Shown here: piece by piece, positions 59,392 through 64,000 of the stretch | How positions within the stretch are numbered: the stretch's first letter is position 1 | How the letters are laid out: every line of letters starts with the position of its first letter | NCBI GenBank assembly: GCA_965219455.1 | Contig: OZ244744.1 | Location: 2,976,001-3,040,000, forward strand | Source of the DNA: Candidatus Latescibacterota bacterium | GTDB taxonomy: Bacteria > Latescibacterota > UBA2968 > GCA-2709665 | Length of the DNA stretch: 64,000 nt | Direction: 5' to 3' | Translations under genes and position numbers: made by a program | Notes under the pieces: model-generated | The model's database searches: none | Seen by the model: only the letters and a program-made list of their open reading frames with translations | What the model was told of the DNA's origin: nothing

Positions 59392-59863
59392 AAATAAAGA
59401 CGAAGCGATCCACTGCTCGGGGAGAAAGAGGCCGCGGGGCCACGAAGGAATTTAAGCCCGTAACAATCACCAATACATCTTTTAGGAACACATTTTAAAT
59501 GGCTATTACAAGTAGAAAGATCCGGCTCACCGATCTGGACCAACTGCCGCCGCCCGAGGATCACACGATGTTCACCATTCAAGGCGGCGCGGCAGCTAAA
59601 TTACCGATAAAGCAAAACCCGATCAGATTCGCAATTTTGTACCGCAACGGGTGTACATCAAACGCTTGGGGAGTGCAGGTCCGGCCCGCGGGAGACGCTT
59701 ATGTATATTGCCGGGACAACATGCAGGCCCAGCACGTCAGTCTTCACGCTTCTGGAAAGCAGCACATCACCATTGATCCCAATTCTCCAAGTGCGGGTGA
59801 CTTAAGTGAAAAGCAATTTATGAATCAATGGCACGAGCCAGACGAAGGAATTGCGACCTTTAG

Positions 59864-61569
59864 AGTCTTACAGTGTGACTTCTACGCAAAATGCGTAGAT
59901 AATTATTCATGCTGCTTGTTTAGTTGTAGGGTGTTGATGGTAAAGGGTCAAAGACAAGGCGAGTATTTTGTGCCCTTCGAGTGTGACGCGCCACCGTCTG
60001 GACCGTGGGATTTTTGCAATAAGGCCGCGGACGTGTAGGCGTTTGAGGCGGCGGCTGGTGGCATTGGCGTGCCGAGTGCGTTGCAGCAGGGATGCTGGAT
60101 GTTGGAAGAGGTGTGTTCGGATGTCCTGGTTGCGGAAGCCCATCAGGGCGTGTTCGCCTTTCAACACAGCGGTAAACAGGGCGAGGTCGGCAGGGTCGGC
60201 GGGGTTGAAGCCCCGATAGGTACGTCCCTTGTGCCTGCGTGGCCGCGCCAGTGTGGTGAGGCTTTGATGTCCGGTAGCGGCGTCAGGGGCTGCGGACAGC
60301 GCCTGAAAGTAGCGTTGGTTGGCCGTCAACGAGATTTCCCGATAGCGGTAGAGGTTGGCCACGCCTTTGGCCATGGGATACCAGCCCATCACGCGTTGTC
60401 CTCGCCGTATGCCCCAGCGGCGGACCTTGAACTGCCTTGGATGGTTGATCACTGTTTCGACGCGTAGTACGCACCCGTGTTTGTCGTACATTTTAATCCA
60501 GTTCTCGCACATCCGGTGTTTGACTCTTGCGCCTTTGTGGCGTTTGTTTTTGAAGTCCGTGAGGACTTCGCCCTGAAAATTGCCGTGGAGTTTGCGGCCC
60601 AGGAAGGTCAAGATGTCCTGGGGAGAGAAGCACAGCACCGTGTGTCTGAGCAGGTTTTCATACAGCACCTTCAGGGCGTGGGGGCTTTGGAACATCACGT
60701 CGGTGGCGAACTCGGCCTGGTCAACGACCCAGTAGTAGTCCTTGCCCGAAAGCAGGTCGTTGAGCAGGGGGTTGACCTTGCGGGCGAACGCCGAGAGAAT
60801 GCGCGGCCAATTCTTGCCCACAAAACGATCGGCAAAGCGTTGCGCCCGGTCCACATCGGCAATCCATAGAAAAGCGTTGTCTGATTTTTCATAGGCGATG
60901 CCGTGTTGCTCGAGCTTGCGCGCCAAGAACTCGTGGCCATTGAGACAGATCTGCACCACCAGCGGGAACCAGGACTGGATGCGGATATGCATCAACCCGA
61001 ACTCCCGGTCAATCCAGTAAAAGTAGTAGCATAGGCATTTCCGTTGTGCGTTGATCAGGCGAGGCCTTCCTTCCCCTGGAACCAGCTTGAAACTCTGGCA
61101 GCCTTCCAGGGCCCGAAACACACAGACCAGGCCTTGCGTGATCCCATCGTGTTTTGCCAACCGTCGCGCTTCGTCCTCTTTCCTGATGGTGTTGCGTTGC
61201 AGATAGATGAACGGGCGCTCGTGCTTGTTTGCCATCGCCTCCGCGTGGGCTTTGATCGTATCGGAATGCGTCATCACAAAACGCTTGAAGTCCTTCAACA
61301 ATAAACCCTGATTGCTGATGAACCGCTCCATCGCAGTTCCAAATCCCAGCGGCAGGTACCCTTTGAACAGAACCCGATCAAAACAGGATACCACTCCGGT
61401 GATTTATTCACTACATTGGTCCACGAAGTCTTTCACGGCGTTCCTCCTTCCATTGATGGCGGTGGGTACCACCATCATAGGGGATGAACGCCGTTTTGCA
61501 TACCCTAAAACTATCTGCTCTTGACTACCACCTATTTGGTTGCGGCTGAGCAAAGCGAAGCCGCGTTAG
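59864..61569 (-). mobile_element. 1706-bp insertion element, no terminal inverted repeats, TTAG at both junctions, hairpin ends
   Basis: TTAG at 59860-59863 and 61566-61569; removal restores the host ORF; hairpins at 59881-59899 and 61542-61564. Confidence 0.85.
59907..61436 (-). pseudogene. Unclassified transposase-like protein of about 509 codons with C-terminal wHTH; nonsense codon at position 11
   Basis: GGAGG RBS, GTG at 61436: MKDFVDQCSE*ITGVVSCFDRVLFKGYL; KMYDK...LRVET; C-terminal RRLKRLHVRGLIAKI..WRVT..G. Confidence 0.75.
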
Positions 61570-62249
61570 GCTAATCTTCCCTTGGTGGGGAATCCAGCTA
61601 AATGCGGACCAGCGAAATCGTTTCAAATCAAAATGGAAGAAAAATGACATATTTATCGAAGGACACCGTGAATATCTTACTATTGTCGCGTTCTGGATTG
61701 TCACGCAGAAGGTTAAGCTCCAGAAGAAGGGTAAATGCCCTGGCTTCGTGCTGGGGGAGCTTCCGCTGACGTCAGGAAAGAAGCTTGCCATTACAGCCGA
61801 ATGGGAACCCGAACGCGGCTTTCAATCCGTGATCAAAAAGGGACTGCAAAAAGTTGCCCTCAGGGAGGACTTTTCTGACGATGACCCAGGAGAGACTCTC
61901 GGTATGTGTATGACGGGGACCACTGGTTCCTCACATTCAGTCTATATGGTTAATTTCCCTGTAACCCATTCGAAACGCGAACATGAGCAGCTAGAAGAAT
62001 AGCGCGACGCGGCAGCGGACTTTCTCTGTTATTCTCCACCGTCCCTGCGCTCCGTATGAAAGGTAGCGAACCAAGCAAGGCTTATCTGCGACCGCATTCT
62101 TTCTTGGGATTCCACAGGAATCTGAAATCCATTGCGTTTTGGGCGAAATTGGCCGAAATTGGCGCTGAGATAATGGGAAGTTGCATGCAGGCTAACGCGC
62201 TGCAAAGTCGTTGTTAAAAAGACAGCAGTGCAGGGAAGACAGAAAGCCA

Positions 62250-64000
62250 ATGATCGCGGATCACCTCACCGGCATAGAGCAGTTCGAGGCGGACCTCTGG
62301 AAAGTCGCGGATAACCTGCGGGCGAATTCAAACCTCGCCTCGAATGAGTATTTCATGCCCATACTGGGCTTGATTTTTCTGCGGCACGCGACAAACCGTT
62401 ACTACGAGGCGATGGCTGCGATCGAACAGGACATAGCTGCAGACAGGATGCCGGAGCGCCCGCTGATCAAGGACGATTTTACACGGCGTCGTGCACTGAT
62501 GTTGCCCGAAGTGGCTCGCTATGACGTTTTGCTCGAGATGACAAAGGACGGCAGACTCGGTACCGCCGTGACCGCTGCCATGGAAGCCGTTGAAGACGAT
62601 TTCCCGCCGCTCGCGGGCCAACTTCCGAAGGACTACGAGCGCTTCGAGGACGATGTTCTGGAAGAGATGATGCGGACCTTCCATTCGGAGGCGCTGCGTA
62701 CTGCCTCGGGCGATGTGTTTGGCCGTATCTACGAATACTTCCTCGCGGAGTTCTCCAAGCAGGGCGCACACGACAACGGCGAGTTCTTTACCCCGCCATC
62801 GATCGTCCAGACCATCGTCAACGTCATCGAGCCCGATCATGGCGTCATCATCGACCCCGCCTGCGGATCGGCTGGGATGTTTGTGCAATCGAGCCATTTC
62901 ATCGAGGACGAGGGCGAGGACACGATGAAGCGGGTAACGTTTTACGGTCACGAGAAAAACGAGACCACCGCGAGATTAGCCCAGATCAACCTCGCCGTTC
63001 ATGGGCTGCAGGGCAGCATCCGGGCCGGAAACGAAGCCATCACCTACTACAAGGACCCACACGAACTCGCCGGCAAATGCGACTTCGTCATGGCCAATCC
63101 TCCCTTCAACGTGGACGAAGTGGACGCCGAGAAGGTCAAGGGCGACAAGCGCCTGCCCTTCGGCCTGCCCGGCGTCAACAAGGCGAAGAAGGTTTCCAAC
63201 GCCAATTACTTGTGGATCTCTTATTTCTACAGCTACCTGAACGAGACCGGCCGGGCCGGGGTCGTCATGTCGTCGCAGGCCTCCAGCGCCGGACGAGGCG
63301 AGGCCAAGGTGCGCCAGAAGCTGGTCGAGACCGGCGCCGTTGACGTGATGATCGATATCCGCGGTAACTTTTTCTACACCCGCACCGTGCCCTGTCAGCT
63401 CTGGTGTTTCGACCGCTCGAAGGAGCAAGACCCCGATCGGGCCGATCGCGTCCTGATGCTCGATGCGCGCAATATCTATCGGGAGGTCTCGCGTGCCATC
63501 TTCGACTTCTCGCCCGAGCAGCAGAAGAACATCGCCGCCATCGTCTGGCTCTATCGCGGCCATTCGGATCGCTTCCTCAAGCTCGTGGAGAGTTACCTCG
63601 CTCAAGCCATCGCGGAAGGAAAGGCTACCGACGAACCGCTCGCGGAATTTGAGGACGCTCTATGTAAGCTGATCCATCTGGCCGAACCATTTGCAAACGA
63701 GAAGCACGATGCCGACCCGCTGGTCGAGACCTGGGAGGAGCTCACCTCCGTACAGTCGAATCTGTCAGAACACATCAATGAGTTTGCGGCCGAAGTCACC
63801 AAGCGAGCCGCAAACTGGAACGAAGGCGGGAGCGGCGAGACGCGGGACAATGCCGCCATTCATACGGCGCGTGAAGGCCTGCGCGGGGTGTTCGAACGCT
63901 GCCGGGACCTGACCAAGCAGATCGATCTGGCGACGAAGTTGGCCGGTCGGGCGGTCGATGTCGCGATGAAGGAACTTGGGGCGCCGGAATCGGACCTATG
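62250..64000 (+). CDS. hsdM: Type I RM methyltransferase subunit, partial (runs off window end)
   Basis: MIADHLTGIEQFEADLWKVADNLRANS; GEFFTP, DPACGSAGMF, ANPPFN. Confidence 0.92.
   Translation, partial: MIADHLTGIEQFEADLWKVADNLRANSNLASNEYFMPILGLIFLRHATNRYYEAMAAIEQDIAADRMPERPLIKDDFTRRRALMLPEVARYDVLLEMTKDGRLGTAVTAAMEAVEDDFPPLAGQLPKDYERFEDDVLEEMMRTFHSEALRTASGDVFGRIYEYFLAEFSKQGAHDNGEFFTPPSIVQTIVNVIEPDHGVIIDPACGSAGMFVQSSHFIEDEGEDTMKRVTFYGHEKNETTARLAQINLAVHGLQGSIRAGNEAITYYKDPHELAGKCDFVMANPPFNVDEVDAEKVKGDKRLPFGLPGVNKAKKVSNANYLWISYFYSYLNETGRAGVVMSSQASSAGRGEAKVRQKLVETGAVDVMIDIRGNFFYTRTVPCQLWCFDRSKEQDPDRADRVLMLDARNIYREVSRAIFDFSPEQQKNIAAIVWLYRGHSDRFLKLVESYLAQAIAEGKATDEPLAEFEDALCKLIHLAEPFANEKHDADPLVETWEELTSVQSNLSEHINEFAAEVTKRAANWNEGGSGETRDNAAIHTAREGLRGVFERCRDLTKQIDLATKLAGRAVDVAMKELGAPESDL

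Follow-up and report, generated by a model that had tools for sequence, protein, structure and literature searches.

Which kind of enzyme moves an insertion sequence that has neither terminal inverted repeats nor a target duplication? This question is raised by an element in the DNA of a Candidatus Latescibacterota bacterium (assembly GCA_965219455.1, contig OZ244744.1), which we analyzed within a stretch of 64,000 nucleotides (positions 2,976,001 to 3,040,000; hereafter the window). The element lies at window positions 59864-61569, carries a single gene on the minus strand and interrupts a host gene. We regard it as nearly certain that this is a true and widespread insertion sequence lacking both inverted repeats and a target duplication. 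Our results suggest that its transposase is probably a Rep_trans-like tyrosine nuclease of a widespread and so far unannotated insertion sequence family. On balance, we also favor the view that it stands for a new chemical class, in which the transposase belongs to the tyrosine-nuclease superfamily with the fold of the TATA-binding protein (TBP; Rep_trans / Rep-Arvir) and is unrelated to HUH enzymes. An initial annotation, made from the letters of the stretch alone, had proposed a poorly described transposon class mobilised by a Rep_trans-like tyrosine enzyme; the predicted fold and the active-site pattern described below argue for this proposal, which we regard as likely to be correct.

The element and its insertion site comprise the following features.

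59864-61569, minus strand: insertion sequence of 1706 bp with one gene, delimited by the block shared among genomic copies, by empty-site contigs and by the restored host frame.
59499-59863 and 61570-62002, plus strand: 5' and 3' parts of the interrupted host gene, recognized from the uninterrupted homologues P0391 and P0392.
59860-59863, plus strand: target tetranucleotide TTAG, which is flank and stays in the empty site; it reads CTAA 3' of the element in the transposase sense.
61570, plus strand: flank base G, target position +1, kept in empty-site contigs; it is the C before the element in the transposase sense.
61566-61569, minus strand: the element's own terminal tetranucleotide, TTAG in the window copy and CTAG in six other copies.

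On the plus strand, the junctions read ...ACCT TTAG / AGTCTTAC...(element)...GCCGCG TTAG / G CTAATC..., so that TTAG occurs at 59860-59863 and again at 61566-61569. Removal of 59864-61569, or of any of the four equivalent 1706-nt frames, restores a single frame of 265 codons, in which the open reading frame (ORF) starting at 59499 is fused with the frame ending at 62002. We found 22 homologues of the host protein (255-320 aa). One of these, P0391 (265 aa), is 100% identical to it across the C-terminal 143 residues and runs uninterrupted over the junction, reading ...GIATFRLIFPWW..., and P0392 is a second uninterrupted homologue of 265 aa. The restored frame is therefore not a matter of chance.

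The empty site itself is present in Logan contigs of two public sequencing runs, X6 and X8, in which 59859 is joined to 61566. These contigs skip exactly 1706 nt, with four letters ambiguous, and retain a single TTAG followed by G; the contig from X6 is 1298 nt long with 0 mismatches on either side, and the one from X8 measures 545 nt. The empty site thus exists in nature, G61570 belongs to the flank and A59864 to the element. Run X4 contains both occupied junctions. The locus is accordingly occupied in X4 and empty in X6 and X8, and the element is mobile. Its extent is 59864-61569, give or take the 4-nt ambiguity, and the boundaries that the initial annotation had drawn from the interrupted gene and its restored 265-aa frame are confirmed by the deletion, the empty-site contigs and P0391. 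Using the window flanks as queries, we found no DNA match in 20 relatives, and the flanks of copies in a Latescibacterota metagenome-assembled genome (MAG) gave only one diverged orthologous site in the window genome. A second empty-site allele with one letter altered inside the target tetranucleotide (window 59859-59863) was seen in runs X4 and X8; it lies on short contig sides (33 nt, depth about 4) and occurs beside the occupied allele in X4.

The window genome, a single contig of 5.84 Mb, contains 11 copies of the element with a shared block at 93-100% identity; nine are uninterrupted, and two are split by insertion sequences of other kinds. Compared with the window copy, five copies are 99.65-99.9% identical, four 97.25% and one 93.2%. 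The block common to all copies consists of TTAG, 1702 nt, YTAG and G. The initial annotation had noted TTAG at both junctions, and this stands for the window copy and for the left junction in general (11/11 copies), but the right tetranucleotide is TTAG in 5/11 copies and CTAG in 6/11; the next base is G in all 11. Cumulative GC skew is lowest near 3.52 Mb and highest near 5.45 Mb, which defines two very unequal arms of about 1.9 and 3.9 Mb; the orientations of the copies are divided 4:2 in the arm between these points and 3:2 in the other. The two split copies (G000:C1:2449997-2451592 and 4795363-4796915; L005, L012) are interrupted near one end, one by an IS3-type element (HTH_Tnp_1 + rve) and the other by an element with a DDE_Tnp_1_4 transposase, with overlaps of 3 and 4 bp where these had inserted.

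Additionally, multi-copy sets from four other genomes, all turned so that the transposase is on the plus strand, were aligned (the Latescibacterota MAG, two Planctomycetaceae MAGs and an Isosphaeraceae MAG); the proteins of these sets are 46-85% identical to the window transposase. Every set follows the same plan, which starts with a flank ending in C, the element's own tetranucleotide, a C or G, a hairpin bounded by GCGG and CCGC, and AACCAA before the gene, and which continues on the 3' side with an imperfect hairpin, a stretch of roughly 13-15 nt that closes with AAGA(C/A)T, and the CTAA of the flank. The own tetranucleotide is fixed per lineage (CTAA/CTAG in the window genome and, in the four sets, twice CTAA, once TTAA and once CCAA). 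Flank tetranucleotides are not constant among otherwise near-identical copies, with CTAA in 38 of 41, CTAT in two and CTAG in one. The base before the element is C in 40/41 copies and T in one, and no further flank position is conserved. This tally of 41 copies excludes L028 and uses the multi-copy alignment for the 5' ends of RUP and Isosphaeraceae copies. Since own and flank tetranucleotides are unlike in 24/41 copies, a 4-bp duplication is excluded. The target is C^CTAA in the transposase sense, i.e. TTAG^G on the plus strand of the window, and the tetranucleotide is left on one side only. The TTAG specificity that the initial annotation had suggested checking in homologous elements and empty sites was thus recovered in both, in the flanks of the 38 copies and in the single TTAG of the empty site, and the variable target duplications that it had named as contrary evidence were not seen. 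Likewise, none of the 72 short inverted pairs of the element is terminal, in line with the earlier view that its ends are not inverted repeats. The nearest pair (12 nt, 92% complementary, window 59921-59932 / 61502-61513) lies about 60 nt inside each end and may be due to chance.

In place of inverted repeats, the ends carry the following structures, given in the transposase sense.

59864-59880, minus strand: 17-nt terminal segment, which ends in ...AAGACT and abuts the target CTAA.
59881-59899, minus strand: 3'-end subterminal hairpin or palindrome TCTACGCA-AAA-TGCGTAGA with a 3-nt loop, 17 nt from the left TTAG.
61536-61541, minus strand: AACCAA box adjoining the 5' hairpin, conserved in 17 diverse 5' ends.
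61542-61564, minus strand: 5'-end subterminal hairpin or palindrome GCGGCT-N11-AGCCGC, 1 nt from the right tetranucleotide.

The window hairpins are unremarkable when folded alone as DNA (z = -2.3 and -1.15), and the evidence for them is therefore comparative. In the 17 diverse 5' ends, the stem has six pairs, which are 100% paired over 95 cells. Two of these pairs show compensatory changes in five cells (C:G to G:C; C:G to T:A), the covariation score was reached by 0/500 shuffles, and sliding the partner lowers pairing to 20-60%. The loops measure 3 to 11 nt, and of the four columns of the AACC core, two are invariant and the others at least 90% conserved. The last 60 nt of the 3' ends are almost gap-free in an alignment of 28 diverse sequences, with the hairpin at a fixed distance from the end in 28/28. 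It comprises ten pairs with 72% of cells paired, of which five pairs show compensatory changes (27 cells), and again 0/500 shuffles reached the score. A54, G55 and three flank letters, the C, T and A of CTAN, do not vary among 28 ungapped 3' ends taken from diverse loci. The hairpins that the initial annotation had placed 1 nt and 17 nt from the junctions are thus found at these positions and covary across relatives. The conserved palindromes are compatible with hairpins in single-stranded DNA as well as with a site at which a dimeric protein binds duplex or cruciform DNA.

We also identified degenerate, non-autonomous derivatives of about 240 bp, in which all that is left of the element is roughly 33 nt from one end and 40 nt from the other (for example G000:C1:2727325-2727567 in the window genome) and whose loose ends correspond to window 59892/59893 and 61530/61531. 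The window genome holds 13 left-end and 10 right-end relics, and end-only matches occur in 12/12 genus relatives searched, several of them paired about 240 bp apart. These derivatives, which resemble miniature transposable elements of the inverted-repeat type (MITEs), indicate that the element needs only its two ends to move. On a 2073-nt contig of a Gemmatimonadota MAG (L080:1960-2073), a full copy runs directly into the 5' end of another, and the two have a single CTAA between them. This head-to-tail junction could be a circle junction or a tandem rolling-circle product, or else an assembly artefact or a second insertion at CTAA. A mark of circular assembly (terminal overlap) was present in 0/10 short contigs. 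Separately, a repeat of about 190 nt lies at the 3' junction of a copy in the Latescibacterota MAG (L022:3116-3320) and has about 45 copies in the window genome; the matches begin at the junction CTAA itself, and the repeat may be another small element with the same target.

The single gene of the element was located as follows.

59907-61478, minus strand: transposase frame of 523 codons, cut by TAA at 61404-61406.

The other copies read T at 61406, where the window copy has A, and thereby have a lysine codon at the position of the TAA. The 523-aa frame is open in 8/9 uninterrupted copies; the longest ORF left in the window copy is 59907-61394 (495 aa from GTG). Further paralogues of the transposase were not found in the window genome. 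Pfam returned 0 families for the protein even at E<=10, and NCBIfam and PDB sequence searches with the single sequence and with a profile gave no match. PHROGs yielded one weak match to a transcriptional-regulator family in the C-terminal region (E 0.059), the ESM Atlas unnamed clusters only, and Rfam no bridge-RNA-like or other family on the element. A scan of 69 family members revealed only sub-threshold winged-helix matches at the C-terminus. The enzyme does not appear to be a DDE, DEDD, HUH, serine- or tyrosine-recombinase transposase, and the lack of a DDE, HUH, serine- or tyrosine-recombinase motif reported in the initial annotation agrees with the empty Pfam, NCBIfam and PDB-sequence searches.

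The family is nevertheless very large. Among 8000 candidates scored, 4327 proteins reached E<=1e-3, and library clusters at 50% identity number 7200 at E<=1e-3, 3384 at 1e-10 and 759 at 1e-30. None of the 120 family matches listed has a Pfam domain, and those with names are hypothetical proteins and one CBS domain protein. According to record titles, relatives come from Latescibacterota, Planctomycetota, Hydrogenedentota, Armatimonadetes, Desulfobacterales, Acidobacteria, Verrucomicrobiota and Gemmatimonadota, from actinobacterial and proteobacterial MAGs and from one bin labelled archaeon; the search for related loci was run with an 11-sequence alignment. Plasmid relatives with 24-34% identity occur in Burkholderia, Paraburkholderia, Rhodococcus and Mycobacterium and are annotated as hypothetical proteins or ArsR regulators.

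In order to obtain information beyond sequence similarity, we modeled the protein with AlphaFold2 using an alignment of 69 sequences, which resulted in a pLDDT of 92.2 and a pTM of 0.87 for the whole protein and of 94.0 and 0.91 for residues 1-401. According to the model, the protein has two parts, a TBP-like double-repeat core (residues about 13-400) and a winged-helix DNA-binding domain (about 400-523). The modeled core consists of two repeats of strand-helix-four strands-helix, which together build a single long, curved sheet; helical insertions are located at 42-115 and 181-247. When the core was searched against all 48,161 PDB representatives, the best structural match was TBP. Matches in BFVD were viral TBPs and Inoviridae proteins of about 300 aa, among them A0A345MNV4 (E 5.7e-4, probability 0.97) and A0A2N9QVX7. 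The predicted core thus has the crescent-shaped, TBP-like domain that characterizes Rep_trans enzymes. No transposase structure appeared in the best 50 matches of four structure searches; an RNase-H-like (DDE/DEDD) fold was absent among the matches that these searches listed, and no profile matched one. The structural comparison with Rep_trans that the initial annotation had suggested therefore points in the expected direction, through the TBP-like core and the match to A0A345MNV4, and the C-terminal winged helix that it had read from the sequence appears in the model and in the weak profile matches.

Invariant in all 69 members are D34, R35, G116, E125, Y152, Y154, G161, P172, N180, E256, Y331, R339 and E341; K329, K333 and D260 are at least 90% conserved. 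The KMYDK...LRVE motif of the initial annotation thus contains some of the most conserved positions of the family (Y331, R339 and E341, with K329 and K333). In the model, D34 lies on strand 26-41 and E256 and D260 on strand 249-263, and the fold class and the invariant residues are established. In RepDE/RepC, Carr et al. (PMC4797284) describe the nucleophile Y191 on one strand with the religation residues R189 and K193, and D46, D142 and E214, each on its own strand, as metal ligands defined by crystallography and mutagenesis. Across RepC relatives and initiators from Enterococcus, Weissella and Lactobacillus, we found D142, D146, R189, Y191, K193, R212 and E214 to be invariant; D46 is invariant in the closer RepC set and also present in the Enterococcus and Weissella initiators. 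The strands can be paired as follows.

First strand: C-F-D34-R-V-L-F-K-G-Y-L in the window protein; S-F-D46-A-M-T-I-V-G-N-L in RepC; S-I-D-R-I-T-I-V-G-K-L in Enterococcus.
First strand of repeat 2: E256-x-x-x-D260 in the window protein; D142-x-x-x-D146 in RepC.
Nucleophile strand, putative in the window protein: K329-M-Y331-D-K333 (326-333) in the window protein; R189-I-Y191-N-K193 in RepC.
Next strand: R339-V-E341 (337-344) in the window protein; R212-V-E214 in RepC.

D34, E256 and E341 are placed on three separate strands in the same order as D46, D142 and E214, and conserved positions occur alternately within the strands, a pattern that side chains pointing to a single face of the sheet would produce. 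This parallel of residue patterns, read from alignment and model, is the strongest argument for a Rep_trans-like chemistry, and it is an argument from pattern.

For tyrosine catalysis, metal ligands, moving strand, exact nick position and oligomeric state, we infer the following scheme. The winged helix and the core would recognize the subterminal palindromes in the form of hairpins or of extruded cruciforms. A divalent metal would be held by D34, E256 (with D260) and E341, and Y331, flanked by K329 and K333, would nick one strand at a TAG-like tetranucleotide of each end and of the target and form a 5'-phosphotyrosine link. One element strand would then be transferred to a TTAG^G site, via a single-strand circle or by rolling-circle copy-out. 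Such a strand transfer would account for the absence of inverted repeats and of a target duplication. Two assignments of the moving strand, the plus strand or the transposase-sense strand, fit equally well. If the plus strand of the window moves, the reaction would be TTAG^[element...YTAG]^G. The target tetranucleotide then lies 5' of the element, and the hairpins are set back by 17 nt at one end and by 1 nt at the other; this is the geometry of IS608 and IS91. If the transposase-sense strand moves, nicks would occur at Y^CTAR, and the GCGG palindrome of the 5' end would follow immediately 3' of the nick site. The latter arrangement resembles pT181, where PMC4797284 places the Rep binding repeat downstream of the nick. 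The 3' junction AAGACT/CTAA shares 7 nt with the pT181 origin loop (L021:4365-4378), and four nick positions within the shared CTA(A) give identical products.

The ends of the element resemble those of the IS200/IS605 family in that they have no terminal inverted repeat, no target duplication, a fixed tetranucleotide at one end and subterminal hairpins. Elements of this family such as IS608 and ISDra2 insert 3' of a fixed tetranucleotide, carry a cleavage tetranucleotide at the other end and have subterminal hairpins. Their transposase is an HUH Y1 TnpA of about 150 aa, whereas the window element encodes a 523-aa TBP-like protein, in which Pfam and NCBIfam detect no Y1_Tnp. An orientation bias due to insertion into the lagging-strand template, a trait of this family, is not seen in the small set of 11 copies. 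IS91/ISCR elements and Helitrons (HUH Y2) share with the element a tetranucleotide target beside one end and hairpins close to the ends, likewise make no duplication, and give products that are head-to-tail or one-ended, which may be compared with the junction in L080. In contrast, the window protein has no HUH/Y2 domain (no Pfam match to the Y2 enzymes of IS91/ISCR), no helicase and an unrelated fold. According to the abstract of the Replitron paper (2022), the Rep-mobilised transposons are IS200/605, IS91/ISCR and Helitrons, all of them HUH.

For Rep_trans, the comparison comprised PF02486, RepC of pT181, RepD/RepDE and RepSTK1 (PDB 4CIJ, 4CWC, 4CWE) and the related MOBT relaxases. The available parts of two papers (PMC4797284, 2016; PMC13107129, April 2026) place these enzymes only in plasmids, filamentous phages and conjugative elements. 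The window protein differs in being encoded by a multi-copy chromosomal insertion sequence and not by a plasmid, phage or integrative and conjugative element, in a core that is about 150 residues larger owing to helical insertions, in its winged-helix DNA-binding domain and in the lack of a sequence-level match. The same architecture is found in Rep-Arvir (DUF7845, PF25227), archaeal rolling-circle initiators according to PMC13107129, in which a TBP-like catalytic domain at the N-terminus precedes a winged helix. Rep-Arvir also shares with the window protein a link to Rep_trans that is visible only by structure and runs through the same BFVD entries, A0A345MNV4 and A0A2N9QVX7 (the former a PF02486 replication initiator, PMC13107129), and the succession of one acidic residue near the N-terminus, one in the middle, a tyrosine and, shortly behind it, a glutamate. 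The window family differs in being bacterial and in forming an insertion sequence instead of a virus or plasmid replicon, and Pfam finds no DUF7845 in the window protein or in the 69 family members.

Several observations weigh against a Rep_trans-like enzyme or against its activity at this locus. The window copy is unable to make the full transposase owing to its premature stop, and neither a circle junction nor a go-back joint of the window locus was seen in assembled contigs. Two further invariant tyrosines, Y152 and Y154, are alternative nucleophiles. PF02486 matches 0/69 family members at E<=1 and nothing in the window genome (six-frame) or in 168 genomes of the phylum. The profile comparison with Rep_trans suggested by the initial annotation also failed to give a match: hhalign assigned non-significant probabilities of 0.16% (A1 vs A4) and 0.24% (A1 vs A7, which adds Reps of Enterococcus, Weissella and Lactobacillus), with shallow Rep alignments of 13 and 8 sequences. 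On the other side, the top local alignment, likewise not significant, pairs the D34 strand with the D46 strand in both runs. A search for RepC homologues gave, among the matches listed, only relatives with at least 86% identity. Finally, the 11 copies show no strict replichore orientation bias on very unequal skew arms. This speaks against an obligatory lagging-strand, IS608-like mode and, with few copies, somewhat favors nicking of duplex or cruciform DNA, as by Rep_trans enzymes.

These points leave room for explanations other than a tyrosine nuclease. The insertion sequence could be real and its core TBP-like, with a hydrolytic site in which D34, E125, E256, D260 and E341 bind metal and no covalent tyrosine intermediate is formed. 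The five acidic positions are invariant or nearly so, Rep_trans homology is not significant in the profile comparison and TBP-fold matches alone do not imply tyrosine chemistry. We nevertheless consider a hydrolytic enzyme unlikely: staggered hydrolytic cut-and-paste would usually leave a duplication and act on inverted repeats, neither of which is present, Y331 is invariant in 69/69 sequences, and the basic-x-Y-x-K and R-x-E strands mirror the nucleophile and metal strands of Rep_trans. It is more improbable still that the ORF is only a DNA-binding protein with TBP-like and winged-helix parts, such as a regulator, and that an unlinked enzyme moves the element in trans. TBP, a pure DNA binder, is the best structural match, and PGAP calls one plasmid homologue an ArsR family transcriptional regulator. 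However, the ORF is the sole one of the element and co-varies with its ends across phyla, no known transposase family was detected in the element, and binding alone does not explain invariant Y, D, E, K and R at alternating strand positions.

A Rep-like protein could also serve a tiny plasmid-like rolling-circle replicon and integrate it at TTAG, the chromosomal copies being integrated replicons. The fold class is indeed that of replication initiators, many family members stand alone on contigs of 1.7-2.3 kb, and the head-to-tail junction with one CTAA on a contig is as expected from a circle or tandem dimer. Yet short contigs are expected from repeats in metagenome assemblies, matching ends were found in 0/10 of those tested, the copies are chromosomal with unrelated flanking DNA in complete genomes, and MITE-like derivatives are typical of transposons, which makes a replicon rather unlikely. 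Least credible to us, with a very small probability, is a highly diverged member of a known family (DDE, DEDD/IS110, HUH IS200/605 or IS91) that the searches missed. The structure comparison covers the families among the matches listed, and ISfinder lay outside the search scope. Against this stand 0 matches in Pfam, NCBIfam and PDB sequences, the lack of a bridge-RNA-like family in Rfam, and a confident model of a two-repeat curved sheet with no transposase in the best 50 matches of the four structure searches. A Rep_trans-like tyrosine transposase thus remains the reading that we prefer.

Around the element, the host gene belongs to a small protein family, and Pfam gave no match on its homologue P0391. 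Just downstream of it lies an ORF (62211-63998) which, judging from an NPPF-type motif, we take to be a candidate methylase of a type I restriction-modification system.

Transposons are classified by the chemistry of their transposases into DDE, DEDD, HUH, serine recombinase, tyrosine recombinase and Cas1 types. In the literature, with ISfinder and subscription journals outside the scope of the search, we came across no account of a transposon whose enzyme has a Rep_trans or TBP fold. An earlier description under another name is possible, although public annotation pipelines call these proteins hypothetical, which argues against it. If our reading is true, it adds a class of transposase and provides the missing Rep_trans counterpart of IS91 and IS200/605, in that both unrelated kinds of rolling-circle nickase would have been recruited for transposition. 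It would also make it possible to annotate a very large family, with 7200 clusters at 50% identity, whose members are now called hypothetical proteins or ArsR regulators: thousands of such proteins in at least a dozen phyla would be transposases of an unrecognized insertion sequence family inserting at TTAG^G. For assembly and annotation, the elements are relevant as they break genes, as in the case described here, and seed abundant MITEs. Overall, the family would offer a compact, one-protein system in which sequence-specific nicking and joining of single strands can be studied.

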